In this document: piece by piece, positions 903 to 18,739 of the stretch
Layout of the letters: every line of letters begins with the position of its first letter
Position numbering within the stretch: position 1 is the first letter of the stretch
Source of the DNA: Pseudobdellovibrionaceae bacterium
GTDB taxonomy: Bacteria > Bdellovibrionota > Bdellovibrionia > Bdellovibrionales > Bdellovibrionaceae
Length of the DNA: 18,739 bases
NCBI GenBank assembly: GCA_041288045.1
Contig: JBGGMM010000093.1
Coordinates: 1-18,739 of the forward strand
Reading direction: 5' to 3'
Notes under the pieces: model-generated
What the model was told of the DNA's origin: nothing
The model's database searches: none
What the model saw: the letters and a program-made list of their open reading frames with translations, nothing else
Program-made: the position numbers and the translations under genes

Positions 903-3638
903 TCAATCTGCCGAGTAAGCGGAGCTGGGGGGAGTGAAATTCGAAGTCCAGCGGAGAACTTGGCTGATGCGGATTTCGTCGATGGACCCAGAAAGAAATC
1001 GTTGGCCATTGGTGGCTCCAATGGTCAGTGGCGTGTTGCTATTATCGAATAAACTCACGGCGCCAGAGCCTAAAACGGCGGAGCCGATCAATTGGCCGGC
1101 GAAATAAATTTTCACAGTTCCCTGATCCCAAGTGAAGGCGACATGAGTGTAACCAGTCTGCAAAGCTGTTTTTTGTGAAGTGGTGAGATTGGCAGAGTCG
1201 ACTTTCGTCACACTGGTTCCATTGAGGCTTCCCTCGAAATACAAACGGTAATTCACACCTAATTTTTTTATTCCGAATTCCCAGCCCATCTGGTTTTTAG
1301 CCCCCATTCGAGCCAGGATCACTGAGTTGGAAGTGGTCAGGGTGGGAGTTTTCACAAAAGCTTCCACTGTCATTCGGGTCAGTGTCTGGGCCAATGAGGC
1401 GCTGGGCGCAGCTGAAAGAAACTGAGTGCTGCCATTGAAACTTCGAGCTTGAGAAAAAGCGCCCTGAGAGTTGTTGGTCGTTCCATTGTTGGTCAGAGGA
1501 TTGTTATTGGGAGCTGCAAAGCCACCGCTATCCAAATTGGGATTGGCCGAATCCAAATGATAAAGAGCGACCGTTTTCGCCGCCGATTGGCTCCAATTGA
1601 AATTGGCAGGAGTGAGGTCAGAATTTCCGGCTTCATCACGAGCGCGAACACTGACGCTGTGAGAGCCAAGCGAAAGGCCACTCAAGGTCAGTGGTGAACT
1701 GCAACTCGTAAAAGCGGCGCCATCCACCTGGCATTCAAAGCTTCCGGTTTCTGTCGAAGCGAAAGCAAAGGTGGCTGAATTGCCAAAATTGGGATTGGTT
1801 GGAGTCTGGCTCAGATTTGTTTCAGGTGCCAGGCGATCCAGAATCCATTGCAAATGGGTGGCGCTTGATTCAAGCCCAGCCAAAGAGGATTGTTTCAAGT
1901 TCAACTGAAAAATTCCATCCGTTGTTTTTTGCACTGAAAACAGAAAACTTGAATTGGCGCAAATTTGATTCCATTTTCCCGCAGGTTCAAGAATTTCATC
2001 TGCAGAAAGATCACCACCTAAGACCACTTTCATACCATTGATGCAACCGCCAGATAGAGTCAATTGAGTCGAGTTCGACAGATAAGGTGAAGAGGCCGGG
2101 GCGCTCAAAGTAGGCGAAGCCGGGATGACGGAATCTCGCACCCAAGTGAAAGCAAGGCTTCCAGAGGTGTTTTGGGCTTCGTCTTTCTGGTGGATTTGGA
2201 ATTGGTAAGTGGCATCTTGATCTGCAGTCACTTGAAATTGAAATGCTGATTCCAGGCAAGGAGTGTTGAGCTCACGATCTCCTGTCAGAAAAACTTGAGC
2301 TCCGCTTTCGCATTGACCCGTCAAGCTGAGATTTCCGGAGGAGTGAAATGGGGAGCTGACGGGCGAAAGCAGGGTTGGAGCCAAAGGAGCCTGAGTGTCT
2401 CGAACCCAAGTCATTGAAACAGGTGAAGAGCTGAGCATGGTGGCTGGATTTCGCTGAGATAAAGAATAGCTGTAAGTGCCGTCTGTGCTCTGTGAATCAG
2501 TGAATGAAAATCCAGAAGCCACACAAGTCGCTGTTTGAATGCTGCTGCCAGAAAGAAGCACAGTGAATCCCGTTTGGCAACTTCCGCTCAAAGTAAGAGA
2601 GCTTTGATTGGAGGGAAAGGGAGAGATTGAAGGAGAACTCAAAACTGGTGGCAGAGGGAGAGCTGTGTCTCGGATCCACAGAAAGTTCGTCAGCGCCGAT
2701 AAATTGCCGGCAGCATCGGTTTGCAAAAGTGAGTAGGAGTAAGTTCCATCGCTTGTTTGGCTCAATGAAAAGTCAAATTGCGACTCTTGGCAGATCTTGG
2801 AACTGGTTGCATCTCCAGAAATCTGAACATTGGCGCCAGCTTCGCATTCACCCAAAAGGTGCAATTGGTTTTCTGAAGAAGTGTAGGGACTGCTGATGGG
2901 ACTTTGCAGAGTGGGAGCCGCAGGGGCCACAGTGTCTCGTCGCCAAATCAAGGAAACAGAAGCTGAAGTGGCCCCATTGGCATCCTCTTGAATTAAATTG
3001 TAAGTTTTTTGCCCGTCGATCACCTGGGACACTGTCAGTGAGAACGACGATGATTCACAGCTTACTTTTTGCGTGCTATCGCCAGAAAGACGAATTTGAT
3101 TTCCATTGAGGCAAGTGCCTGTGAGCGTGAGAGAATCGGTTTTGGACTCGTAGGGAGAGTGAGTGGGGAAATTTAAAACCGGGGCAGGCACGAAGGAATT
3201 TCGAACCCAGATCAAGGACACTGGGCTTGAGCTATTGCCGGCGGCATCCGTTTGCTTGATTTGAAAAGTGTAGCTCGCATCGCTCGTTTTTGAGACTGCG
3301 AATGAAAAAGCACCCAACTCGGAGCAAACTGTGGCCTGGCTGTCGTCTCCGCTGAGTTCCACTTGGGCTGTGGGCTCGCAGCTTCCGCCGAGGAGCAATT
3401 GGCTGCCACTGAAATGATAGGGGTTGGTGGCCGGGTTGATCAGTGTGATGGTCTCTGGAGCTGTGGTGTCAGGCAAAGTAGTTGTGGTCGTCGTTGTTGT
3501 TGTTGTGGACTCGCTGGCTTCTTCTTCAGCCAGTTTTTCAATCATTTCATCGGGAGTTTTGGCCCCACAGCCTGAAAGCAAAAGGACACAAAACAAAGCT
3601 TGAAAAAGACGGTGACATTTTGAAAATTTGAAAGTCAT
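903..3638 (-). CDS. Large surface lipoprotein/adhesin: Thr linker, tandem Ig-like repeats, C-terminal LamG-like (concanavalin A jellyroll) domain (911 aa)
   Basis: Lipobox LLLSGC (Cys24); poly-Thr linker; six ~90-aa repeats ending in W(V/R/I)xD/N; a seventh Ig-like unit (FECQVDGAAFTSCSSP...VRARDEAGN); LamG-type motifs TVEAFVK, THVAFTWD, GSIDEIRIS. Confidence 0.9.
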   Translation of the reverse strand: MTFKFSKCHRLFQALFCVLLLSGCGAKTPDEMIEKLAEEEASESTTTTTTTTTTLPDTTAPETITLINPATNPYHFSGSQLLLGGSCEPTAQVELSGDDSQATVCSELGAFSFAVSKTSDASYTFQIKQTDAAGNSSSPVSLIWVRNSFVPAPVLNFPTHSPYESKTDSLTLTGTCLNGNQIRLSGDSTQKVSCESSSFSLTVSQVIDGQKTYNLIQEDANGATSASVSLIWRRDTVAPAAPTLQSPISSPYTSSENQLHLLGECEAGANVQISGDATSSKICQESQFDFSLSQTSDGTYSYSLLQTDAAGNLSALTNFLWIRDTALPLPPVLSSPSISPFPSNQSSLTLSGSCQTGFTVLLSGSSIQTATCVASGFSFTDSQSTDGTYSYSLSQRNPATMLSSSPVSMTWVRDTQAPLAPTLLSPVSSPFHSSGNLSLTGQCESGAQVFLTGDRELNTPCLESAFQFQVTADQDATYQFQIHQKDEAQNTSGSLAFTWVRDSVIPASPTLSAPASSPYLSNSTQLTLSGGCINGMKVVLGGDLSADEILEPAGKWNQICANSSFLFSVQKTTDGIFQLNLKQSSLAGLESSATHLQWILDRLAPETNLSQTPTNPNFGNSATFAFASTETGSFECQVDGAAFTSCSSPLTLSGLSLGSHSVSVRARDEAGNSDLTPANFNWSQSAAKTVALYHLDSANPNLDSGGFAAPNNNPLTNNGTTNNSQGAFSQARSFNGSTQFLSAAPSASLAQTLTRMTVEAFVKTPTLTTSNSVILARMGAKNQMGWEFGIKKLGVNYRLYFEGSLNGTSVTKVDSANLTTSQKTALQTGYTHVAFTWDQGTVKIYFAGQLIGSAVLGSGAVSLFDNSNTPLTIGATNGQRFLSGSIDEIRISQVLRWTSNFTPPSSAYSAD
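1833..3470 (-). repeat. Six diverged protein-level Ig-like repeats, each with a conserved Cys pair
   Basis: Consensus PxLxSPxxSPYxSxxxxLxLxGxC...VxLSGD...C....F.F......DGxY.Y...Q.D.AGN.S......W.RD is visible six times in the translation. Confidence 0.85.
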
Positions 3639-5617: not shown

Positions 5618-6289
5618 TCAATTGTCCATGGCGCCGGCGTTGATCCAGTCGCGGATAGCTTGGATTTGGGCTGAGCTGAGGGCTCCGCCTTGTGGCATTC
5701 GGCCGGCGTTGGGGACTCCGACGGTGACGGCTCGGTAAAGAAGACTGTTGTCGGCGTTTCCGGCAGTGACGGCTCTCATGACTTCGGCATAAGAATTAAA
5801 TCGCTGTTGAGAGTTTCTGGTGTTGTGGCAATTGGCGCAGATGGGGGTGAAGACTCGGTCTCGAAGCACAGAGAAGCGGGGCTCGATCATGCCGCCACCA
5901 GGAGCACCTGGGCTCGTCGGATCTTCAGCCAATCCCACAATCCACAATTTTAATATTTCAAGTTCCATTTCATCCAAGCTGGGTCGAAGCTGCGGCATCA
6001 AGCCCTGACTGGTCTGTTGATAAATGGGGGACAGCTCGGGTTCGCCGGGAACCACCAAGCGGGAGTAAATCAAATAATCCACATTGGCGATATCACTGAT
6101 GTTGCCGTTGACGTTTTCTGGATTGTGGCATTCCACGCAGTGCTTATTCAAAATCACCACAGCCGAACTTTGCAAGCTCTCTTGGCTATTGAGATCGGTT
6201 GAAGCTTCATACACCAGCTCCGACGGCTTTCCGCAATTTTGGAACAGAAGCAGAGTCAGAATGGAAAGTCCTAAAACCCAATACTTCAA
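5618..6289 (-). CDS. Dihaem c-type cytochrome lipoprotein with two planctomycete-cytochrome-C-like domains (223 aa)
   Basis: Probable TTG start at 6289 behind GAGG (ORF track starts at 6328); lipobox LLLFQNC; CVECH (6125-6139) and CANCH (5825-5839), each followed by a V(P/T)(x)G...S.(I/L)Y segment, an MPQ distal-ligand candidate and a W-I closing helix. Confidence 0.88.
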   Translation of the reverse strand: MKYWVLGLSILTLLLFQNCGKPSELVYEASTDLNSQESLQSSAVVILNKHCVECHNPENVNGNISDIANVDYLIYSRLVVPGEPELSPIYQQTSQGLMPQLRPSLDEMELEILKLWIVGLAEDPTSPGAPGGGMIEPRFSVLRDRVFTPICANCHNTRNSQQRFNSYAEVMRAVTAGNADNSLLYRAVTVGVPNAGRMPQGGALSSAQIQAIRDWINAGAMDN

Positions 6290-6297
6290 ATCACACC

Positions 6298-7962
6298 TCA
6301 GTTGTTTTGTGCCCCAGCAGCGAGCCATTCAGTGATCAAATCAATCTCATTTTGGGGTCGATATCCATCCAGTGGCATGGATTGAAGGCCTTCTAGCTCG
6401 GCCAGATCAGCCCGAATCCGCCTGTACATTTTGTGCTGCAAAAGATTGGGATTGCCAGGAACGATGATTCCCTTGCTGACCATCTCTCGGTAATCGGTCA
6501 TGTCGTAACCGCCCTGGCGCTGGACCGAGTTGTGGCATTTCACGCAGTTCACTCCTAAAATGCCTGATTTCGGATTCATCAATTGGGCAAATGTCGGAGC
6601 CGATCCTGTGTAGGCCGGATTGTAATCAGGAAGTGAAATGCGCAAAGTCTTATTTGTTCCCAGCACCGCACCCAATGGATCGCCCAGTTCCAGTCGCAAA
6701 ACCTTGTCCGGGTCATTGCGAAGATCGTCAGAAAAAATAACGTTAAAGGAAACAGTTTTTTGTGAGGGATTGATGTTCAACGAAGTCGATGTGCTGGGAT
6801 CAAACTGATAGTCCCAGTCAAAACGATTTCGCCCTTCGCCGACAATGCCAACAGCTGGGATTTCGCCACTGGGATAAGTCGAGGCGACTTGCACTGGGAC
6901 AGAAATCGGATCCACCATGTCGCCATCGACTTGCACTGTGATTGTGACTTTATTGGCAATTCCCAACTGAGTGGGCTGAATGGTCAAATTCGAAAGAGTG
7001 AATCTCACGCTCGGAGGTGGCGGTGGCGCCGGCAGGTCAATGATTTCAATATTGTTCAATTGAACAGCCAAAGTGTCACTGGCACCCAGGGGCCCGACAG
7101 AAACCAAAGATCCCGGCGAGAGCAAGGCTGTCGTTCCCATGTAAGCATTGATATCCAGATTCTTAAATGTCGTCGCATAACTGATCGGAAAACCGTTCAG
7201 CCGAAAATTCAGACCCTTGACGTGAAGACTCGAAGTTCCGACTTTCAAAGTGGGAAGAGAAAACACATAAGCTGTTTCACCAGAGGGAATCAGCATCCCG
7301 GTCACAGTCACGGAAAGCTGCACTCCAGTCAGATTGGGAATGGTTTTGCCATTGAGTGAGACCAAAGAAGAATTGAGATTCCAAGTCAGCACTCGACGAT
7401 CAAAGTTGGTGATGGTGACATTGGCTCCATTCACCCGAGTGGTTGTTGTGGTTCCATTGATTTTTGGAATCAGCTGAGAAGCAGTTTCAAATTCAGGTTT
7501 GTAAACTTCGGCCACAGGCGTGGTCGTCCCGCATTGGGCCTTGTCTCTTTGATAGGTCTGCCATTGCAAGCGAAAGGAGCTGATCACTTCGGTGTTTTGG
7601 CTCCCGGTGTAGGGTGGGTTGTGAGAGCCGCTGACTGCGTACTGTGAAATTTTCGAATATCCCACCTGCATAAATCCGGCAAAGGCCGTTTTCACATCTG
7701 GAGAAGCAAAAGTTCCCTTTCCGGGTCCATCGACATGGCAGTTTTTGCAAGTGTAGCTCAGGAAGGGATGAAAGCCCCGAGAAAAAACGGTGATGTCTTC
7801 TTCGCTGCAGATATCAGCTGCATTGTAAGTGACAATGCCACTGCTGCTAAAGCTTGTGAAATTTTCGGCAGTTTGACCTTTTCCACAATTGTTATAGAAA
7901 ACGACAAGGCCTAAGCCCAAGCCGAATACTCCTAACAAGCGGAAAAGTTTTTTTGTTCTCAC
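6298..7962 (-). CDS. Dihaem cytochrome c lipoprotein with central beta-rich and Calx-beta-like domains (554 aa)
   Basis: Probable GTG start at 7962 behind AAGGAAG; lipobox VFYNNC; CKNCH (7735-7749); poly-Pro hinge then Calx-beta-like segment (SVRF...VSFNVIFSDDLRNDPDKVLRLEL); C-terminal CVKCH (6532-6546)...IVPGNP...SMP...EWLAAGAQNN. Confidence 0.88.
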   Translation of the reverse strand: MRTKKLFRLLGVFGLGLGLVVFYNNCGKGQTAENFTSFSSSGIVTYNAADICSEEDITVFSRGFHPFLSYTCKNCHVDGPGKGTFASPDVKTAFAGFMQVGYSKISQYAVSGSHNPPYTGSQNTEVISSFRLQWQTYQRDKAQCGTTTPVAEVYKPEFETASQLIPKINGTTTTTRVNGANVTITNFDRRVLTWNLNSSLVSLNGKTIPNLTGVQLSVTVTGMLIPSGETAYVFSLPTLKVGTSSLHVKGLNFRLNGFPISYATTFKNLDINAYMGTTALLSPGSLVSVGPLGASDTLAVQLNNIEIIDLPAPPPPPSVRFTLSNLTIQPTQLGIANKVTITVQVDGDMVDPISVPVQVASTYPSGEIPAVGIVGEGRNRFDWDYQFDPSTSTSLNINPSQKTVSFNVIFSDDLRNDPDKVLRLELGDPLGAVLGTNKTLRISLPDYNPAYTGSAPTFAQLMNPKSGILGVNCVKCHNSVQRQGGYDMTDYREMVSKGIIVPGNPNLLQHKMYRRIRADLAELEGLQSMPLDGYRPQNEIDLITEWLAAGAQNN

Positions 7963-7972
7963 GTCATCTTCC

Positions 7973-9469
7973 TTAAGCAATCTTTTTCATGCGATCAATT
8001 TCAGTGGACGAAAAGGTTCGCGGCAGAACTTTATCGATTTGACTCATTTGACCATTGAAAGAAAGCCAGTTGATGAAAGCAGCAGCTGCAGCCCGATCCG
8101 GAGAAGAAATCAACGGATCGGCAGCTCCCTGGCCAGCATTCATGTAACCCAACTGGGAGCCAGCAGCGCTGGGTGCCGCCGCAGGATTAATGGCAATCAT
8201 GTACATGGCACCACGAACTCCGCCATCACTGGTCCATTCAGCGCCAGCCAAATCCGATTCAGGTGAAGTGGTAGAGCCATCTGTCGAAACAACAATGAAA
8301 GCTTTTTTGCCGAGAGCCATGGCTGTCTGTAAAATCTGGCCAATGATTCGCCCGGCAGTCAGATCGCGGCCATCACCCGTGGTGCGAGTTCCATCATGGT
8401 AATCATATCCACCCATGTTCAAATTGGCGGATCCAGCATTGCCATTCAGGGCATTGAAAACAAGCGAACTAAAAACATAATCTCTTGAATTCATCGCCGT
8501 GTTGTTTTGCAAATTCCAAATGGCGGCGACTTGAGCATTGCCTCTGGGATCGGTGTTGTTGCCGTTGGCAGAACCCACCAAGGCCGTGTTGTCTTGAGTG
8601 CGACAAGTGATCACGCTCTGGAGAAGGTTTCCACTGTTCAGACCGACGTATTTGCTAGCCTGATAGGCTGAGAGCTGTTGAATCGTTTGAAACAGAGTTC
8701 CAGCCCGCTTCGCAGCCACCAGTGGATCTAGACTTCCGCCGACGCCGAGAGCTCCGGTGATGTCTTGGTAATTCGCAACAACCAAAGGTGCCGGAGGAGG
8801 CAAAAAGGCAGGCATTTGTCCAATGCCAGTGGCCGTGTTGGAAGTTCCAAGATTGGCCAAAATTTTTCCGTTCAAGCCCATGCCGCGAGCAAGGCCCGTG
8901 ATATCAAAATTATTTGTCGAAGTGTCATCCTGTGAAGTCACTGAAATTCCCACAAACACACTGGATGAAAGAGTGGAGGCAGCGGCCGTAGCGCGAATTC
9001 CACTCAAGAGGGTGGAACCGCCAAAAAAAGGAGCGCGATTGGCAAATTCAGCATCCGCAGTGAAGGCGTTGGCTTTTCCCCAACCCATTTTTGAATAGGA
9101 GGGGAGCAGATTTCCACCTTGATCCAAAGGCAGCCAGTGAGAGGAAAGATTGGCACCACCAGAAAGATTCAAAGTGATCAGTGGCACCCAGCCACCGGTC
9201 CCGGCGGCGCAGTTGATGGCATTTTGAGCCACTGCAGATTTCGAAAGAAACATCGAAAAAAGAGGCTGACTGAGAAGTGTGCCAGTGAATGAAATCACTC
9301 CAGTCGCCAACAGATCGCGGCGGGTGAGAAGCTTTCCGCCATGGGCCTCTTGATGGGCATTGAGCTTTTGCTGATTTTCAAAAGCCTTTGCTTCCACTTC
9401 TTCTTTGCTCAACGCGGTTTCAATGAGATTCTCTTTGAGATTTTCGTTTTGTTTTTTATTTTTCCCCAT
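7973..9469 (-). CDS. Tat-exported DUF1501-like protein (498 aa)
   Basis: Twin-arginine motif LTRRDLL then a hydrophobic stretch and AVA cleavage-like site; ITLNLSGGAN, GGYDYHDG (compare GGWDTH of DUF1501 proteins) and IVVSTDG motifs; RBS AAGGGG. Confidence 0.75.
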   Translation of the reverse strand: MGKNKKQNENLKENLIETALSKEEVEAKAFENQQKLNAHQEAHGGKLLTRRDLLATGVISFTGTLLSQPLFSMFLSKSAVAQNAINCAAGTGGWVPLITLNLSGGANLSSHWLPLDQGGNLLPSYSKMGWGKANAFTADAEFANRAPFFGGSTLLSGIRATAAASTLSSSVFVGISVTSQDDTSTNNFDITGLARGMGLNGKILANLGTSNTATGIGQMPAFLPPPAPLVVANYQDITGALGVGGSLDPLVAAKRAGTLFQTIQQLSAYQASKYVGLNSGNLLQSVITCRTQDNTALVGSANGNNTDPRGNAQVAAIWNLQNNTAMNSRDYVFSSLVFNALNGNAGSANLNMGGYDYHDGTRTTGDGRDLTAGRIIGQILQTAMALGKKAFIVVSTDGSTTSPESDLAGAEWTSDGGVRGAMYMIAINPAAAPSAAGSQLGYMNAGQGAADPLISSPDRAAAAAFINWLSFNGQMSQIDKVLPRTFSSTEIDRMKKIA

Positions 9470-9490
9470 GGAACTAACCCCTTTTCAATC

Positions 9491-10129
9491 TTAAAGCACC
9501 AATGTGTCCAAAGACGCCAACATGGATGTGCACATAAAAAGTGCTGCATCATGAGCCGTATTGGCCGCATTGGCATTGCCGAAAGACGAGTGAAGTGCGC
9601 CTAAAACAATATCGGCCTCTGCTGAATCCGCATCCCGTGACCAACAAGATCTGGAGATTCGAGACAGAACGTCGCGAAGAGCTGTGTCCGCTGGGAGAGT
9701 GGTGGATGTCAGATTGTAGCCGATGAAAATTCTGGGAGTTCCAGATCTTTCTGCATCAATCAGATCTCTGCAAACTTCACCAGCAATCGAAGCTGAGGCC
9801 ATGAGCATCGGAGCAGTCACAGTTTTCACTGCTCCTGTTTCGGACACAGTTCCGGCTTTTGCCGCGTACATTTGCAAAGTTCGATCCGAAGGAAGGCCTG
9901 ATCCCAGGCAAGTGGTGTAATGATCTAGAATCTGCTTGGAATAGACCGTCGCCACAGTTTTGGTATCCGGAAGCAGAGTGGGATCATCTTCACTCGCTAA
10001 AGAGAATTCGCCTCCGACTGATTTCATGTCCACCAGTTCCCAGCGCCCGCAGCCTTGTCCGAGACCCAGAATGATCAAAGCGCCAGAAGCCAGAGCCGCT
10101 GTGAGTCTGACAATTGTTTTCTTTGTCAT
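9491..10129 (-). CDS. Cys-containing helical lipoprotein of unknown function (212 aa)
   Basis: ATG at 10129 behind GGAGA, overlapping the upstream stop (ATGA); lipobox LGQGC; four further Cys (TTCL, EVCR, RSCW, FMCT). Confidence 0.85.
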   Translation of the reverse strand: MTKKTIVRLTAALASGALIILGLGQGCGRWELVDMKSVGGEFSLASEDDPTLLPDTKTVATVYSKQILDHYTTCLGSGLPSDRTLQMYAAKAGTVSETGAVKTVTAPMLMASASIAGEVCRDLIDAERSGTPRIFIGYNLTSTTLPADTALRDVLSRISRSCWSRDADSAEADIVLGALHSSFGNANAANTAHDAALFMCTSMLASLDTLVL

Positions 10130-12393
10130 CGCAATTCTCCCAGGCAATTGGTGGTGGTGACGATTTTCTTAAAGAGATAATCCAATTTGTACTGTCCGTC
10201 GGTTTCAAATTCTTTGGCGGCCGTGGTGATCAGCGATTGATCAAAGCTCTGCGGTTCGCGTTTGCAAACACTGGCAAAAACTCTCTGAGCCAAACACTTT
10301 GAGTACTGAGCGGATTCGGAAACCATGCGACCGAACTCTTTCACTCCTCGGCCAGCCGTTGGGCCTCTCCAGCCAAAATAGCCCATGCCCCAAGTGTCAA
10401 TGGTGGCATTTTGAAATGAGTTGTCAGTGATCACTCGGCCATTGGGAAAGACCTGCTCATTGTGATTCATCTTGGTCGCTACAAAAGAAACGTTTCCGAG
10501 ATTTGGCAGATTGGTCAGTGCCGGATCATTGTTTTTAAGACCTGCCAACATTCCCATGGAAGTGTCTTCGTTATTGGCGTTGGCAGGAAGCCTTGGCACC
10601 ATGAACGAATGCTTGGCAAATCCATTTGAAAAAGTGAAGTAGGCAAAGGCCCCTCGCAGCGGATCCATTTGCGAATGGCAAGACCTGCAGTTGGAAGTGA
10701 ATTTCGTGTGGCTGCCGCCAGGGAAGCGATCCACATCACGACCAATCATGGCGTCACTGCCCGAAGAATTGGACCAGCGATCAATCGGAGTGCAAAGAAA
10801 TTCGCGGAAAGTGTATTCGACAAGCCGTCGGTTGGTTCCAGCCACAGCATGTGCGGCCATAAAAGCTCTTGAAGTCAGAAGGCCGGCCGGGTCGGGATGG
10901 GCAACATCGACAGTGCCGTTAAAGACCCTTTGGCCGTCTTTTCGAACCAACACTTTGGCAAGATCAAAGCCCCCAGCTTGCAAAGATTCATAGTGACGAT
11001 TGGATGTGAGCAGATCGCGCACAGCATGCGAAGGGACGGCCGCTTTGGTTGGATCGGCCATATAAAAGTAGTTTCCAGTGAGAAGTGTTCTGGCGTCCAA
11101 TTTGTCTCTGACAGCGCCAATCATGGTGGCTGTGAAATCATTGAGAGAAGTCGAAATCGTCTCTTCACGGGTTGACATTTTCGCTGCCATATCGCGAACA
11201 GTGATATTGAGAAATCCCGGATTTTGAGTGGCAATTCCTGCAGCCGCAAAAGAATTTCCCTGATCAATCAATTCAGCCATTTGTTGAATGACTGGATCGG
11301 TGACCGGAGTTCGAAGCCCGACAATGCGCTCATAAATTGTCTGTGCCTGCTGCATTGAAGTTGTGATGCGTGAATTGATATCAATCGAAAGAAGATTCGG
11401 CGGCACCAGGCGAGGGGCGCCAGAGCCTAGGATTTCGGCTTCAGTCAAAGCCCGACAGTAAATGGCCATCATATAGATTTTTCCCACCCAGGGCCAGTGA
11501 CGGCTGTGCTTGGAGGCGCTTTCCCCACCAGCTGTGGGCTTTGAAATATCCAAGAGTCCGCTGGGCTCATTGCCGATGGCCAGGCGCATATCCAAGGCTC
11601 TGGTTACAGATCCCGAAGAATCGTCTGGAGTGTCATAAGTGACATTGGTGCCGGAAGAATGCCAGTTGGAAAAATTGCCGTTAAAGCCATCATTCGCCAC
11701 AAAGGGGCCTGTGTCATTGCCATTTTCATCCGAGTTGTAAAGTCGGGCTACGCCGCCAGCTGTGCGTACCAGGTAGACGTGTTGTTTTTTTCCAAGCAGG
11801 AAATTTTCTCTCGGCGAGAGGAGGTAATTCACATAATCACCATTGCGGTTCTCTAAGTTATTGGAGTTTCCAGTGGTGCGAGTGGTGCCGCGGTAAGCGT
11901 CTCCCATATTGTAAAACTGCTGCAATGAAAAATTGTGGAATTCTTTAAAGTAAGTATCGGCCAAAGAGACAAAGCGAAGCCCCTGCTTGAAAGTTCCAGC
12001 TGCCAGGTCGTCATCTTCGTGATTGGCCAACTTTTCAGAAGGTGTTCGGCTTTCCACCCACATTTCAATCGTCATGGCATTGGAGGCTTTGCAGGCATTG
12101 ATGATCTTATCTGCTGAAGCCACCGAGCGGATGATATTGGGCTCAACAATTTCTAAATGGTCAGCTTGGATGTTGTAAAGAGCATTGGGTCTTAAGATTT
12201 GCAAATTCAGAGGATTCGGTGCCAGATCCCGGATGATTCCTGTAGCCGCTTCAATATTGGCTGGTTGAAAAACGTAGAGAGAAATCGCCGAATCACGAGT
12301 CGACCCGTTGCCATTTGAATCCAATGCCAAAGCGGCGCTGGGGACTGTCACTGTCAGACAAAATGTCAGAAGCCTTTGAAATCTTGGCATCAT
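10126..12393 (-). CDS. Secreted LamG-like + monohaem DUF1588/DUF1585-like protein (755 aa)
   Basis: Signal peptide ending AALA; N-terminal LamG-like motifs (MTIEMWV; WVGKIYMMAIYCRALTEAEI); C-terminal half has AGLLTSRAF...NRR...FREFLC...CRSCHSQMDPL (CxxCH at 10675-10689) and GVKEFGRMV...CLAQRVF...LFKKIV, resembling PSCyt3/DUF1588 and DUF1585. Confidence 0.82.
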   Translation of the reverse strand: MMPRFQRLLTFCLTVTVPSAALALDSNGNGSTRDSAISLYVFQPANIEAATGIIRDLAPNPLNLQILRPNALYNIQADHLEIVEPNIIRSVASADKIINACKASNAMTIEMWVESRTPSEKLANHEDDDLAAGTFKQGLRFVSLADTYFKEFHNFSLQQFYNMGDAYRGTTRTTGNSNNLENRNGDYVNYLLSPRENFLLGKKQHVYLVRTAGGVARLYNSDENGNDTGPFVANDGFNGNFSNWHSSGTNVTYDTPDDSSGSVTRALDMRLAIGNEPSGLLDISKPTAGGESASKHSRHWPWVGKIYMMAIYCRALTEAEILGSGAPRLVPPNLLSIDINSRITTSMQQAQTIYERIVGLRTPVTDPVIQQMAELIDQGNSFAAAGIATQNPGFLNITVRDMAAKMSTREETISTSLNDFTATMIGAVRDKLDARTLLTGNYFYMADPTKAAVPSHAVRDLLTSNRHYESLQAGGFDLAKVLVRKDGQRVFNGTVDVAHPDPAGLLTSRAFMAAHAVAGTNRRLVEYTFREFLCTPIDRWSNSSGSDAMIGRDVDRFPGGSHTKFTSNCRSCHSQMDPLRGAFAYFTFSNGFAKHSFMVPRLPANANNEDTSMGMLAGLKNNDPALTNLPNLGNVSFVATKMNHNEQVFPNGRVITDNSFQNATIDTWGMGYFGWRGPTAGRGVKEFGRMVSESAQYSKCLAQRVFASVCKREPQSFDQSLITTAAKEFETDGQYKLDYLFKKIVTTTNCLGELR

Positions 12394-12408
12394 TCCCCCA
12401 AAAAAACT

Positions 12409-14220
12409 TTAGGGAATCACTGTTGACAGCAAGCTCGCAGAGCCTGAGTTGTTCAGTGGTTCCGCATTGATCCTGGCGCCGACAGCAAAGAAATTTCCGG
12501 ATGTCGAGACACTGGATCCAAATCGATCATTCGCCGCTCCCTTTAAAGAGACCACGCGACGAGAGAAAACATGATTTGCGCCACTTGCTTTGAAGTGGTC
12601 CACGGCACCGGCTTGAGTCCTAGCGTCCGGTGCACCGATGAAAATTCCGGCAGTGCCCATGGCAACCGAAGAGCCAAATCGGCTGAGATTGGTGTTGGTT
12701 GGATCATCCAGCATTTGCAGACTGCGATCGGCTTTAACGACAATTGCCAGACCCGGTCGGCTGGTGGCGCTTCGCTCGTAGCCCGGAGCTCCGACAACGA
12801 CGATGCCATTGTGAATGGCAACAGCAGCTCCCAATTCAGATCCCAATCCCACAGTCAGCATAGCTGTTCCTGTGCCGGCTGAATTGGTGACTGTCAGATT
12901 GGATTTGGTGCTTGAAGTGCGAAGCGCCGTGGTGACTTCGCTGCCACTTTGATAAAGGAAAATTTCTCCACTGAGAGTGTCCCGGTAAAGCGGACTTCCG
13001 GGAGCTCCGACAGCCAAAAGAGTTCCTTGAACAGCCACAGCAGCCCCAAAATAAATTCGATTGCTGATCGGACTTGCGATTCGAGCTGTTTGATTCAGAC
13101 TGGCGAGATCATACAGGTACACAGCTCCGGCATCGGTGTTTTCACCGGGCGCGCCGACAGCCAATTGAGTGGCATCGACAGACACTGACCAGCCGAAGCG
13201 GCCGCTGGCTACGCTCCCTGAAATCTTTCGCACTTGCGAGAAAGTGGCGCCGCTTCGGCGAAAGACATGCACAGCTCCCATATTGGAATTATTTTTTGCA
13301 GAGCCAATCACCAGGACATCGCCCTTCAAAGCCAAAGCTTGAGGCGAATCCTCAGGAGCGCCGCGATCCGAAGTGACAGAAGTGTCTTCAGTGCGAAGGA
13401 TCTGGGTGCGAGTCCAAGTGTTCGCACCAGAGAGCTGGTAAATGTGCACGGCTCCCGTGTTGCCATTGCCGTTGGTGACTCCGTCATCACCAGAAGCTAG
13501 AAGAGCTGCTGTCGATCCGTCAATGGCCACGGCCGAACCGAGCTGATCGAAAGCGTCCAAGGATTCAGCAACAATCTGTTCAGGGTAGCAGTTGTTTTTA
13601 AATGTCACTGTCAGTGTTTGTGCCGGTGAACGTTTGCTGGCATCTGCCACACTTTGTAAAAAGACGCTGAAAGTTTCAGTGCCTTCATAGCATTTCATTG
13701 TGGTGTCGTTGTCATTGGCGCCAAAAGTGATGTTGGTGCTTTGTCCAGGAGCCAAAGTTCCGTTCGGTGCTCGCAGAATGTTAATGCCGTTCATGTCCAC
13801 AGCGACTCGATTGCCCGAATCATCAAGAGCGCGAAGAGTGCCGCCGGTTCGTCTTTGAAAAACGACGGTTGCGCCTTGGTTGCAATTGGCACCGACCGAA
13901 GCTGAAAGGTACTGAAGAGAAATTTGCGCTGAATTGCTTCGGCCGCCATTGGCTCCGGTTCCGGAAAGCACAGTCAGTGAAGCGCCAGAAAGTGGGCCTG
14001 CACTGGGAGGGTTGACTGTGCTGAGATTGCAAGTGGGAACTCCGCCTGGAGGAATTGTAGTTGGGGGAGTGCTGCCAGTGCCTGAGCCATCATTCGAGCC
14101 CAGGCTGCTACTTCCGGAAGAGGGAGAAGAAGTCTCCCAATTTTGTCCAATGCAGTTTTGAAATGCTAAGAGCAGAAGTGATGTGAGCGCGATCCACTTG
14201 ATGCGGTCCCTGTTCTTCAA
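12409..14220 (-). CDS. Lipoprotein with a seven-bladed FG-GAP (integrin-alpha-like) beta-propeller (603 aa; 612 aa if ATG 14247 is used)
   Basis: Lipobox LAFQNC; Ser/Gly/Pro linker; four-Cys N-terminal domain; seven repeats of (F/L)GxxVA.....L.VGAP....GAV. TTG at 14220 has AGGGGG 6 nt upstream, while ATG 14247 has no SD. Confidence 0.88.
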   Translation of the reverse strand: MKNRDRIKWIALTSLLLLAFQNCIGQNWETSSPSSGSSSLGSNDGSGTGSTPPTTIPPGGVPTCNLSTVNPPSAGPLSGASLTVLSGTGANGGRSNSAQISLQYLSASVGANCNQGATVVFQRRTGGTLRALDDSGNRVAVDMNGINILRAPNGTLAPGQSTNITFGANDNDTTMKCYEGTETFSVFLQSVADASKRSPAQTLTVTFKNNCYPEQIVAESLDAFDQLGSAVAIDGSTAALLASGDDGVTNGNGNTGAVHIYQLSGANTWTRTQILRTEDTSVTSDRGAPEDSPQALALKGDVLVIGSAKNNSNMGAVHVFRRSGATFSQVRKISGSVASGRFGWSVSVDATQLAVGAPGENTDAGAVYLYDLASLNQTARIASPISNRIYFGAAVAVQGTLLAVGAPGSPLYRDTLSGEIFLYQSGSEVTTALRTSSTKSNLTVTNSAGTGTAMLTVGLGSELGAAVAIHNGIVVVGAPGYERSATSRPGLAIVVKADRSLQMLDDPTNTNLSRFGSSVAMGTAGIFIGAPDARTQAGAVDHFKASGANHVFSRRVVSLKGAANDRFGSSVSTSGNFFAVGARINAEPLNNSGSASLLSTVIP

Positions 14221-14243
14221 ACCATTCCCCCTGGACAAAAGAC

Positions 14244-14270
14244 TCATCGGACAATTCCGCGAAATCCCTA
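14244..14270 (-). promoter_or_regulatory. Candidate sigma28 (FliA)-type promoter for the six-gene operon
   Basis: Minus strand TAGG-N15-TCCGATGA versus consensus TAAA-N15-GCCGATAA; its -10 covers ATG 14247, consistent with the TTG 14220 start. Confidence 0.4.
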
Positions 14271-16239: not shown

Positions 16240-17709
16240 TCAATCCCATTCTTTCTTGCACTGATAATTCTGCCGGCTTTGCAAGTAGCGATAGCCGGTG
16301 TAGAGCTGGTGGGCTCCCATGAGGGTGCCCATCACGTAGGATTCTTTTTTTGAAAAAGCGCGAAGATCGCCAGAGCCTCGGGAGTCCATTCCGCCCGAGG
16401 CGTAAGAGCGTGAACCCTTGGCACCATTTTTTCCAGCCCAATCTTTGCCGAAATAGGAAACGGTGTTGAACATATTCCAGAAGAGCCAGCCTTTTTGAAA
16501 TTGGCTGTCAGGACTGAAATTTTGCGCGATCACTTCGGAGCCGACGCTATGAGAAGCTAGGCCGGCAATGGCAATGGCTCGGTGCTTGTTCGGAGTTGTG
16601 TGACTTCGCCAAGTTCCAGTTTTTGAGTCCCAATCCAGTTTTTCTCCTTGAACTCGGGCCACAGCTTCATGGGAGAGCTCGTGAGTGAGAAAGCTTCCGA
16701 CTCCGCCAGCGGCCATTCGTAAAAGCCCTCCGGCTGTGAAATCTTCAGGACAAGCCACATTCCAGCGAAATCGATCGCTTTTGGCTTCAGCTTCTGTGGG
16801 TCTTTCACCTGGTCCCTCAGTCACCAAATCGCCGGCAGCAGAGGGGATTTCCAGACGAATGGGATTGAGTTCAGAGGCGGTGTTGGGAAAAAGGTGTCGA
16901 AGAGTGCAGAGCTGAAATTCAAATTCATCTTCAAAATGTCGAGTTTGTTTAGCTGCTTTCATTTTGCAGCTTTGGTCTTGAGTTTTCAGTGGACAGGAGT
17001 CGATGGCTTTTTTCACTTCCGAAGCTCGCATTTGAGCCAGCAGAGTTTTTTTAAAATGATAAGTTCTGGGCGAATCGCTTTTCGACGAATCAAACAAAAG
17101 TTGAAGTGGTAAAGAGGCTTTCTGGCAAGCTTGAGAAATTCTTGAGGCTTCGTTCATTTCGGATGAAATGTCTTTTGGAAATTCCTTTTGCTTGAGGCCC
17201 TGACTGATGAGGCCCATTTCATTTTTGATCGGAGAGGGAATCTGCTTGGGGTGCCAAAGCGTTTCTTTTTGCACGGCATGTGTCAGGGCTTTGGAATCCT
17301 CCAAGTCGGAAAGCAGTGAGCTGTCTTTGAGGATTTTTTCCAGTTGATCAAGATCTGAGATTTCTTGAATTCCTGCCAGACGCCGACCTTCTCGCAAAGC
17401 TTGGATTTTCTGCAGCCACTGCGCTTGCCGAGTGGTTTCGATCTGGACGAAATCATCAAATTTGGTCTCTTTGGATTGAACACCAAGATCACAAAGAGAT
17501 TTTTTCTCCACTTTCAATTTCAAGGGTAAGATTTTTCCGAGCTCGCCAAGGTCTTTTTGATTTTTCACTGGTGCACTTTTTATTTCGGGACAGACAATTT
17601 GCTTTTCGGAAAGCGAGCAGTCTTCAGATCGAGCCTGCCAAGGGATCAATGAAATGAAAAAAAGAAGAGTGAGGGTCTGTTTCACAGAGTCACTGATCGG
17701 CGTTTTCAT
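16240..17709 (-). CDS. Secreted protein with C-terminal HExxH, M50-like metallopeptidase-type domain (489 aa)
   Basis: Signal-like N-terminus; charged helical, Cys-containing N-terminal two thirds; GSFLTHELSH (HExxH at 16669-16683) followed by IAIAG, WLFWNMFN and a GD motif. Confidence 0.7.
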   Translation of the reverse strand: MKTPISDSVKQTLTLLFFISLIPWQARSEDCSLSEKQIVCPEIKSAPVKNQKDLGELGKILPLKLKVEKKSLCDLGVQSKETKFDDFVQIETTRQAQWLQKIQALREGRRLAGIQEISDLDQLEKILKDSSLLSDLEDSKALTHAVQKETLWHPKQIPSPIKNEMGLISQGLKQKEFPKDISSEMNEASRISQACQKASLPLQLLFDSSKSDSPRTYHFKKTLLAQMRASEVKKAIDSCPLKTQDQSCKMKAAKQTRHFEDEFEFQLCTLRHLFPNTASELNPIRLEIPSAAGDLVTEGPGERPTEAEAKSDRFRWNVACPEDFTAGGLLRMAAGGVGSFLTHELSHEAVARVQGEKLDWDSKTGTWRSHTTPNKHRAIAIAGLASHSVGSEVIAQNFSPDSQFQKGWLFWNMFNTVSYFGKDWAGKNGAKGSRSYASGGMDSRGSGDLRAFSKKESYVMGTLMGAHQLYTGYRYLQSRQNYQCKKEWD

Positions 17710-17796
17710 CAGATTTTTTGAGCTTGCCCCAGCCCGTGCCGAACTCCGGACTCATTTTCATTCAACAAATTCCAGCGTGGGTTTAAATCAGGTCTT

Positions 17797-17830
17797 AAAA
17801 ATGCAAATGGCAGGTTTTTGGTCCTGCCAT
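17797..17830 (-). terminator. Candidate intrinsic terminator of a minus-strand antisense RNA
   Basis: Minus strand ATGGCAGG-ACCAAAAA-CCTGCCAT (perfect 8-bp stem, arms 17807-17814 and 17823-17830) followed by TTGCATTTTT. Confidence 0.55.
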
Positions 17831-17886
17831 CTGTGACTTTGGAAAGTCGCCTCCTCTAACCAGGAGGTGTTTATGTCCAACCGACA
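17797..17886 (-). ncRNA. Putative cis-antisense antitoxin RNA (~85-90 nt) covering the SD and 5' UTR of the 33-aa ORF
   Basis: Bounded by a sigma28-like promoter (17893-17919) and the terminator hairpin; contains three consecutive hairpins. Ends are inferred. Confidence 0.45.
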
Positions 17887-17974
17887 TAAACCTTATCGGA
17901 AGATTCTGGGAGTGCTTGAGAGGATTTTAAGGCTTTTACTTTTGATCCTCCGCATTCTCAAAGAACTGATCTAG
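17873..17974 (+). CDS. 33-aa cationic amphipathic peptide, candidate type I toxin (MSNRHKPYRKILGVLERILRLLLLILRILKELI)
   Basis: Below the ORF-track length cut-off. Strong SD AGGAGGT 4 nt before ATG; 8 K/R versus 2 E; 16 of the last 23 residues are L/I/V, with polar residues at helical spacing. Confidence 0.7.
   Translation: MSNRHKPYRKILGVLERILRLLLLILRILKELI
17893..17919 (-). promoter_or_regulatory. Sigma28 (FliA)-type promoter inside and antisense to the 33-aa ORF
   Basis: Minus strand TCAA-GCACTCCCAGAATCT-TCCGATAA: exact 15-nt spacer, 3/4 and 7/8 matches to TAAA-N15-GCCGATAA. Confidence 0.6.
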
Positions 17975-18068
17975 AATTTTTGGAAGTCAGGGCTTAATGA
18001 GGTTGTAACACGAGGCTTAAAACCTTGGAGGTTTCAACGGATTTGAGAAGATGGTAGGACCACCTTGA

Positions 18069-18739
18069 TTATTCGAAAACATCAATGGCGAGATTGGAAA
18101 GAAATCCTTCGTCACCAGCTTCTGCTTCGGCCAGCCAAACAAGTTCTGCGGGAAGTCCCTCTGATGAAAACCGCAAACGATAAATCACAAGATCAAGGCC
18201 CACGTGGTTTGGAGTGAGCACCAAAGTTTGACCGTCCGCCAGAAGCTTCAGCGACCTGGGTTCTGATTGATCAATTGGAAAGGGCAGGCCGGTTTTGCTT
18301 GAATCGATTTCTCCGCTCGCAGTCAGTGGCAGAGCAACGATATTTTCTCGGTCCTTTTCGCGCACGGCAGTCACCAGCACTCGAGTTTTGAAACTGACTT
18401 GCAAATCACTGCCGGAAAGGCCGATCTCGTGAGAACTCGTCTCTTGAAATTGCAGATCCCCTTGGGGATTCTGACTGAAACTCAGAACTTTTACAAAGCC
18501 TGGGCTCTGCAAAGCTTCAGTGGTGATGTACAGGCGATCAAATTGCGAATCAAAAACCACGGTGCGGGGGGATGGGACAGAGTAAAAGCCTTTTTCGACA
18601 GGTCCCTGGTTTGTCATTTGGTAGAAGCGAACTTTGTTTTCGCCCAAATTGGCGACGTGAAGGATTTTTCTTTTCTCATCGAAGCTGGACGAATGGGTTT
18701 TGCTGCCTGTGGGGTAGCTGAGGCTTGCGGTTTCGGTCG
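18069..18739 (-). CDS. Lactonase-family (Pgl/YbhE-like) beta-propeller protein, 5'-truncated by the window
   Basis: Frame stays open from 18647 to the window end (...GSKTHSSSFDEKRKILHVANLGENKVRFY...); blades PSPRTVVFDSQFDRLYITTE and EPRSLKLLADGQTLVL match the lactonase propeller pattern. Confidence 0.75.
   Translation of the reverse strand, partial: TETASLSYPTGSKTHSSSFDEKRKILHVANLGENKVRFYQMTNQGPVEKGFYSVPSPRTVVFDSQFDRLYITTEALQSPGFVKVLSFSQNPQGDLQFQETSSHEIGLSGSDLQVSFKTRVLVTAVREKDRENIVALPLTASGEIDSSKTGLPFPIDQSEPRSLKLLADGQTLVLTPNHVGLDLVIYRLRFSSEGLPAELVWLAEAEAGDEGFLSNLAIDVFE

Follow-up and report, generated by a model that had tools for sequence, protein, structure and literature searches.

A locus built around a short open reading frame in the window (the whole 18,739-nt stretch of DNA analyzed here) is probably a chromosomal type I toxin-antitoxin module, one that belongs to a new family restricted to the Bdellovibrionales and whose toxicity and transcripts are predicted. 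Sequence comparison reveals a conserved coding peptide, a Shine-Dalgarno (SD) sequence and AUG held in hairpins, an mRNA whose predicted ends pair with each other, and an overlapping antisense unit. On this evidence the family is a previously unnamed, type I toxin-antitoxin-like one, new in its host range and in the wiring of its promoters. The features of the locus are as follows; the start-codon hairpin, the 14-bp 5′–3′ helix, the sigma-54-like signature and the upstream palindrome go further than the initial annotation did.

17738–17750, no strand assigned: imperfect palindrome of the TCCG-N5-CGGA type, centered at −72, candidate activator site
17791–17804, plus strand: sigma-54-like −24/−12 signature, with GG at 17791–17792 and GC at 17803–17804, predicted start 17816
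17797–17833, minus strand: intrinsic terminator of the antisense RNA, with a stem at 17833–17804 followed by a U tract
17797–17885, minus strand: predicted 89-nt antisense RNA, candidate antitoxin, over the 5′ UTR, SD and first codons (start inferred)
17816–18065, plus strand: predicted toxin mRNA of about 250 nt, its ends placed from the promoter signature and the 5′–3′ helix
17819–17832, plus strand: 5′ arm of a long-distance 14-bp 5′–3′ helix, with 14 of 14 pairs kept in a second copy on contig C60
17835–17848, plus strand: small 5′-UTR hairpin, identical in the three copies of the window's genome that keep the 5′ end
17849–17868, plus strand: anti-SD/SD hairpin, SD at 17862–17868 (folding; RNAalifold in two other subfamilies)
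17869–17891, plus strand: AUG-burying hairpin (folding, changes in C60, RNAalifold)
17873–17974, plus strand: ORF for a 33-aa basic, Leu/Ile-rich, amphipathic helical peptide, candidate toxin (translation, charge, model, dN/dS)
17894–17919, minus strand: FliA/sigma-28-type antisense promoter in codons 8–16, with the −35 box at 17919–17915, a 15-nt spacer and the −10 box at 17899–17894
18049–18062, plus strand: 3′ arm of the long-distance helix (folding and covariation)

A small basic peptide and its relatives

The initial annotation of this DNA had described the ORF as encoding an amphipathic peptide with a net charge of +6, and re-reading gives the same charge and a hydrophobic moment of 0.77. 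AlphaFold models the 33 residues as a single helix spanning residues 6–32 (mean pLDDT 83.7). Likewise, family peptides are 32–46 amino acids long with a median charge of +6 (75 members), within the range of the small hydrophobic or amphipathic coded peptides (20–60 aa) by which type I toxins are recognized. By the comparisons available, the family peptide is really coded and under purifying selection: dN/dS is 0.25 in codons beyond the overlap with the antisense promoter (23 non-overlapping pairs), and 77 of 79 members have a properly spaced SD. Beyond the hydrophobic pattern, residues are weakly conserved, the mean column identity of the peptide alignment being 39%. No signal peptide or export gene was seen beside the ORF in the window.

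Several copies had been expected in the same genome, and this proved correct. A second full copy lies on contig C60 of the window's genome (G000), with 90% nucleotide and 85% amino-acid identity over about 17797–18064 of the window; a partial copy on C46 is alike through the 5′ region and the first 21 codons and diverges thereafter; and a fragment on C107 is without its 5′ end. A fifth match, on C180, was judged to be noise. The broken copies C46, L018, L086 and L209 all retain the 5′ control region. The fragment on C107 (positions 1–340) directly follows the 3′ end of a gene that we take to be HNH-like from its motif. In other genomes, tandem arrays of two to four copies, 0.4–3.3 kb apart, occur on G286 C33 and C24, G074 C10, G330 C8 and G353 C517, and in five single- or two-contig genomes a copy occupies a shared site at about 11.5–12.7 kb of contig 1.

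Iterated profiles found family matches in 42 of 384 genomes of the order at an E-value of 0.01; at 0.001, 108 of 182 genomes of the window's bacterial family were positive, with 1–14 matches each and at least 365 in total. Within one genus 30 of 44 genomes were positive, and the same query found none in the other 14, several of which are single-contig. A search across the phylum returned 16 positive genomes of 301, all within the window's order. A start-codon pattern matched 12 loci in named genomes, nine of them in Bdellovibrio or other Bdellovibrionales and encoding related peptides; the remaining three were set aside as chance matches. These homologues in named records agree with the Bdellovibrionota-type host that had been expected. 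Loose terminator patterns returned mostly unrelated taxa, and among 189 loci scanned, peptides above noise were confined to Bdellovibrionales where titles were shown. The family, to judge from these searches, is multi-copy, patchily distributed and restricted to the Bdellovibrionales. It is mostly overlooked by gene callers. A search of 1.84 billion representative proteins with the first profile gave 22 matches, and five family peptides checked in protein records were unnamed or absent.

For the statistics that follow, 79 ORFs scoring at least 25 bits were reduced to 75 by dropping four (three broken, one at a contig end), and 37 further members were held out; both sets are part of the 365 matches. 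Because the members are kin, their counts are not independent.

A predicted mRNA with paired ends and a hidden initiation region

The predicted mRNA has an SD that is sequestered and a 5′ end that pairs with its 3′ end, as is characteristic of type I toxin messages, and its fold is better than 200 of 200 shuffles (z −5.9). The SD had been described as locked in a hairpin; it lies in one at 17849–17868, where its probability of being unpaired is 0.02–0.06 in every fold tried. Between the window locus and the C60 copy, 35 of 35 tested pairs are kept, two of the 14 pairs in the long helix having changed on both sides, and the start-codon hairpin has undergone two U-A to U-G changes that keep the sense-strand pairing. 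This two-copy covariation is not significant by itself (109 of 500 shuffles). Across the family, the strongest ungapped pairing of the leader with the 3′ region outscores every one of 50 shuffles in 49 of 75 members, compared with none of 75 for a distant-upstream control, and a member's own leader and 3′ region score 32 as opposed to 21 for crossed pairs. The held-out members behave similarly (26 of 37 versus 3 of 37 for the control); an energy-based form of the test is weaker, with z below −3 in 15 of 75. Furthermore, RNAalifold applied to two other subfamilies recovers all three elements (long helix, SD hairpin and start-codon hairpin); of the pairs in the long helix, 6 of 12 in one subfamily and 8 of 14 in the other show two-sided changes. 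Homologues had been expected to keep both the ORF and a covarying structure, and the family ORFs and these two-sided changes match that expectation.

In equilibrium models of 44 members, removing the 3′ arm leaves the SD closed, its mean unpaired probability moving from 0.10 to 0.12, with a gain above 0.2 in only three; shuffled leaders give 0.26, as against 0.10–0.12 for the real ones. In the window mRNA, loss of the 3′ arm opens the 5′ arm (unpaired probability 0.02 to 0.41–0.46). Since the SD stays closed after 3′ trimming in these models, the activation step is unproven; the freed 5′ arm may act as a ribosome standby site, by analogy with the one described for tisB.

A FliA-type antisense promoter within the coding sequence

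The proposal of an antisense RNA of roughly 85–90 nt, transcribed from within the ORF and terminated in the 5′ UTR, held up on each count, and the type of promoter, left unnamed in that proposal, can be specified. A minus-strand intrinsic terminator with a U tract is found at 17833→17804, and a hairpin with an A-rich flank occupies this position family-wide. A scan for sigma-70 promoters inside the ORF was empty, and that type was rejected; the promoter is present as a FliA type, TCAAG-N15-CCGATA. With the start placed 9 nt past the −10 box, following a by-eye reading of mapped Bdellovibrio FliA promoters, the predicted RNA runs from 17885 to 17797 (89 nt) and folds better than 200 of 200 shuffles (z −4.8). 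The unit thus lies within or flush with 17816–18065 and overlaps the ORF start. An antisense unit complementary to the translation initiation region, as is typical of type I systems, is therefore present in the form of conserved DNA signals, the RNA itself being predicted.

FliA is the attack-phase sigma factor of Bdellovibrio, and Karunker et al. report the box TTAAG-N16-CCGATA in 92 of 140 attack-phase promoters, with mapped starts in their Table S2 lying 9 nt past the box at a pyrimidine-purine step (PMC3627812). In the family under study, a pyrimidine-purine step at this same distance past the −10 box is conserved. In the codons beneath the promoter, a nearly invariant Arg is encoded by CGG or CGA in 70 of 74 members, compared with 71 of 232 other Arg codons and a genome-wide share of 38%, and third-position T beneath the −10 and −35 boxes reaches 95% and 87% against a background of 29%. 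Because this conservation falls on synonymous positions, the constraint from the FliA box acts at the DNA level. A loose FliA pattern matches the antisense strand in 64 of 75 members and 33 of 37 held-out members, and the sense strand in 14 of 75 and 3 of 37, counts in which a few matches may sit away from the canonical position. The window's genome has a fliA gene, and its upstream regions contain the FliA box only at spacings of 16 (nine cases) and 15 (three cases), so that the 15-nt spacing of the window promoter is the minority form. The antisense promoter thus has the box and start spacing of FliA (sigma-28) promoters, and FliA dependence is predicted.

The sense promoter and an upstream palindrome

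A sigma-54-like signature, which overlaps the U tract of the antisense terminator, precedes the predicted mRNA. When members are anchored on a conserved TGCA that precedes the terminator hairpin, GG stands exactly 10 nt before GC, at −25/−24, in 38 of 74 and at any other offset in at most nine; after re-anchoring the count is 40 of 73, and among held-out members it is 26 of 31, with at most four elsewhere (some held-out loci were chosen by the TGCA motif, none by GG). GG-N10-GC is the spacing of sigma-54 −24/−12 promoters. In addition, the 5′ helix arm follows the predicted start by 1–3 nt in 35 of 48 members and by 1–2 nt in 19 of 22 held-out members, a coincidence that constitutes independent agreement between two predictions.

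The genomic context of this call is mixed. The gene rpoN is absent from the window-genome assembly, which is 83% complete, and present in four of five relatives; the window's genome encodes 10 strong full-length activator domains for sigma-54, and canonical sigma-54 sites are enriched in its upstream regions (39 versus at most 17). No such enrichment is seen there for the −12 box in its ATGCA form (2 versus 1–6), an A-rich variant that the antisense U tract, which overlaps it, may impose. We lean towards sigma-54 as the factor that would transcribe the toxin mRNA, a weaker call than that for FliA.

The palindrome TCCG-N5-CGGA lies upstream in 25 of 75 members, with other spacers in 1–5 of 75, and its centers fall at −63, −71 to −74 and −82/−83, one helical turn apart. 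In the window's genome it is enriched neither genome-wide nor between genes, and it precedes none of 27 canonical sigma-54 sites. It was also considered as a repair-gene or SOS element and rejected, having no consistent place before the repair genes located; a perfect copy lies about 150 nt upstream of ssb (C81:9025), with none before the others. Elsewhere, the palindrome followed 40 or 50 nt on by TTGCA and a short leader stands before two transposase-like ORFs, presumably of the REP-associated tyrosine transposase type, and a pilin-like small gene (C10, about 1–420; C164, about 1–210; C118, about 1250–1770; all minus strand), hinting at a shared promoter class.

Comparison with known type I systems

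The family had been thought to match no known one by sequence, and no Pfam, NCBIfam, Rfam, PADLOC or PDB family match was found. An E-value scan of Rfam gave nine weak matches, all far below the gathering score; against Pfam and NCBIfam (54 members), PADLOC (30 members) and PDB sequences there was nothing beyond scattered matches from one or two members, and the window peptide had none. The ESM Atlas returned no match of at least 0.9, the nearest named clusters being TisB (0.83) and DinQ (0.80), which are below the counting level and serve as leads only. A phage origin was rejected: viral contigs contained no pattern match, and phage records no tblastn match.

With regard to architecture, the locus had been likened to both hok/Sok and Helicobacter aapA/IsoA. 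The second comparison stands, in that the antisense RNA lies inside the mRNA and over the ORF start; the first does not, the hok/Sok antisense lying 5′ of the ORF (PMC8594479). Further similarities to aapA/IsoA of Helicobacter pylori include an mRNA of about 250 nt with long-distance 5′–3′ pairing, a basic amphipathic peptide on the 30-aa scale, several chromosomal copies, and an antisense promoter inside the coding sequence (PMC5416894). However, AapA and IsoA belong to another phylum, and no sequence match to them was found through Rfam, Pfam, NCBIfam or PDB sequences. IsoA1 has a constitutive TATAAT promoter, whereas that of the window family is of the FliA type, and 3′ processing of AapA1 frees its SD, whereas models of the window family keep SD and AUG in local hairpins (PMC5416894).

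The peptide is a short, amphipathic helix of Leu and Ile that bears a charged stripe, and in this it resembles those of tisB/IstR-1, dinQ/AgrB, zorO/OrzO and shoB/OhsC (PMC8309996, PMC8594479). As in tisB, the SD sits in a stable local hairpin, and tisB is described as being read through an upstream standby site (PMC8309996, PMC8594479). The antitoxins of tisB, dinQ, zorO and shoB are encoded 5′ of the mRNA without overlap (PMC8309996, PMC8594479), whereas here the antisense RNA would overlap the SD and ORF start. The Pfam models for TisB, DinQ, ZorO and ShoB matched none of 54 members at E-values up to 1. Control by the SOS response was rejected: the motif that we take to be the Bdellovibrio LexA box occurs before lexA in the window's genome and in none of 112 toxin promoters. 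In this the family differs from tisB and dinQ, which are LexA-controlled (PMC8309996, PMC8594479).

With hok/Sok and ldr/Rdl, the family shares an overlapping cis-antisense RNA and a predicted full-length mRNA kept silent by 5′–3′ pairing, and hok is activated by 3′ processing (PMC8594479). Their antisense RNAs are situated 5′ of the toxin ORF and work by way of a leader ORF (PMC8594479), and no profile match to them was found; the window antisense RNA is instead predicted to lie over the SD and first codons of the toxin itself. By these comparisons the family works like aapA/IsoA in its layout and resembles TisB, DinQ and ZorO in its type of peptide, and it is a member of none of aapA/IsoA, TisB/DinQ/ZorO/ShoB, hok/Sok or ldr/Rdl.

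The antisense promoter resembles those of the FliA regulon and the attack-phase small RNAs of B. bacteriovorus HD100 in consensus, spacing and a start 9 nt past the −10 box (PMC3627812). The eight HD100 attack-phase small RNAs are intergenic and, compared by eye, unlike the window antisense RNA, and none is linked to a toxin in that report (PMC3627812). One of them, APsRNA5 (Figure S1 of PMC3627812), contains by eye an SD and an ORF of 29 codons, and has no relation to the window family.

At the level of titles and abstracts, no account of the family, or of any type I system in the group, was found among papers on toxin-antitoxin systems, antisense RNAs and small RNAs of Bdellovibrio and Bdellovibrionota, and none of such wiring among papers that deal with type I systems under sigma-28 or sigma-54. 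For HD100, the survey of Fozo et al. (2010) records no type I locus and a single candidate ORF, Bd3114 (PMC2887945).

Proposed mechanism and alternative explanations

A type I module of this design might operate as follows. An mRNA of about 250 nt would be made from the weak sigma-54-like promoter and kept as a stable, silent fold; trimming of its 3′ end would release the 5′ end, which could serve both as a ribosome standby site and as the target of the antisense RNA. In the attack phase, FliA would produce the 89-nt antisense RNA, and pairing over the initiation region would stop translation. When FliA output falls, on prey entry or loss of motility, the antisense RNA would decay, and the peptide could then insert into the inner membrane of the predator that made it, which would be slowed or killed. 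Four RNA-library runs at the homologue in strain Bd5 gave contigs that include neighboring genes, with neither strand nor ends and with RNA and DNA inseparable.

Supplement rows for HD100, with columns assigned from a partial header, list fliA at about 990 RPKM in the attack phase versus 104 in growth, and rpoN at 169 versus 271. On those values, the supply of antitoxin would drop roughly tenfold once prey has been entered, and the mRNA could still be supplied. It is conceivable, though we hold it only tentatively, that the module is a developmental timer, with the antitoxin on the attack-phase sigma factor, the toxin mRNA on one that persists into the growth phase, and the switch between them as its trigger. 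Were this true, FliA shut-off at prey entry would play the role that plasmid loss plays in hok/Sok, and the resulting pulse of peptide could be a checkpoint that arrests predators with lost motility or unsuitable prey or, alternatively, could permeabilize the prey membrane. In any case, an antitoxin promoter of the type that governs the hunting phase as its master switch offers a concrete, testable proposal for what releases the toxin, a trigger that is still sought for most type I systems on chromosomes.

The same RNA switch could instead time a predation effector, freeing the peptide at prey entry to act against the inner membrane of the prey. An antisense promoter of the attack-phase type, with fliA and rpoN expressed as above, would suit such a role, as would cationic, amphipathic peptides (median charge +6) found only in a predatory order. 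We nonetheless consider it unlikely. A weapon needed for predation sits poorly with genomes that the query leaves unmatched (14 of 44 in one genus, several single-contig) and with 0–14 copies per genome, decayed remnants among them; the absence of a signal peptide or neighboring export gene lowers the standing of secretion further, and multiple layers of silencing suit self-protection. An accessory module that is toxic to its own cell would account for the patchiness, the varying copy number and the decayed copies better than an indispensable weapon would.

It is likewise improbable that the peptide is a non-toxic small membrane protein, such as one that regulates a transporter or motor complex, with its production gated by phase through the cis-antisense RNA. 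Purifying selection and FliA wiring would suit any phase-specific small protein, and the Atlas likenesses to TisB and DinQ are below the counting level. However, the whole 270-bp unit has been multiplied, both dispersed and in tandem, and its presence is patchy; residue conservation is low past the hydrophobic pattern; and the 5′–3′ lock is typical of type I toxin mRNAs as reviewed in PMC8594479. A reading in which the functional product is a small RNA that FliA transcribes and that acts in trans, with the ORF incidental, is very improbable: the conserved His5, Arg9 and Lys-Thr position can indeed be read as shadows of the antisense promoter and start site, but dN/dS is 0.25 in codons past the promoter, the SD is well spaced in 77 of 79 members, and the 3′ helix arm covaries with the small RNA while lying far outside it.

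A self-acting type I module, which remains our preferred reading, may matter for how predators survive, become dormant or grow without a host. Named records place copies in cultured B. bacteriovorus strains (Bd5, kdesi and YOA24) and in several HCB isolates; carriage by Bd5, kdesi and YOA24 makes the family testable.

Genomic neighborhood

On the upstream side, a minus-strand gene at 16240–17709 encodes a 489-aa secreted-looking protein with no Pfam match, its start 29 nt from the palindrome. Downstream, a lactonase-type propeller gene (18069–18737, minus) ends 7 nt beyond the 3′ helix arm; it was sought in five relatives for an empty-site comparison and not found in them. Farther upstream, an operon-like run at 5618–14247 (minus) contains lipoproteins with planctomycete-type cytochrome c motifs, together with a DUF1585-like protein and an FG-GAP repeat protein. 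The beginning of the window holds, likewise on the minus strand, a Gly/Ser/Asn-rich repeat protein (5–628) and a 911-aa surface lipoprotein with Ig repeats and laminin-G (903–3638).
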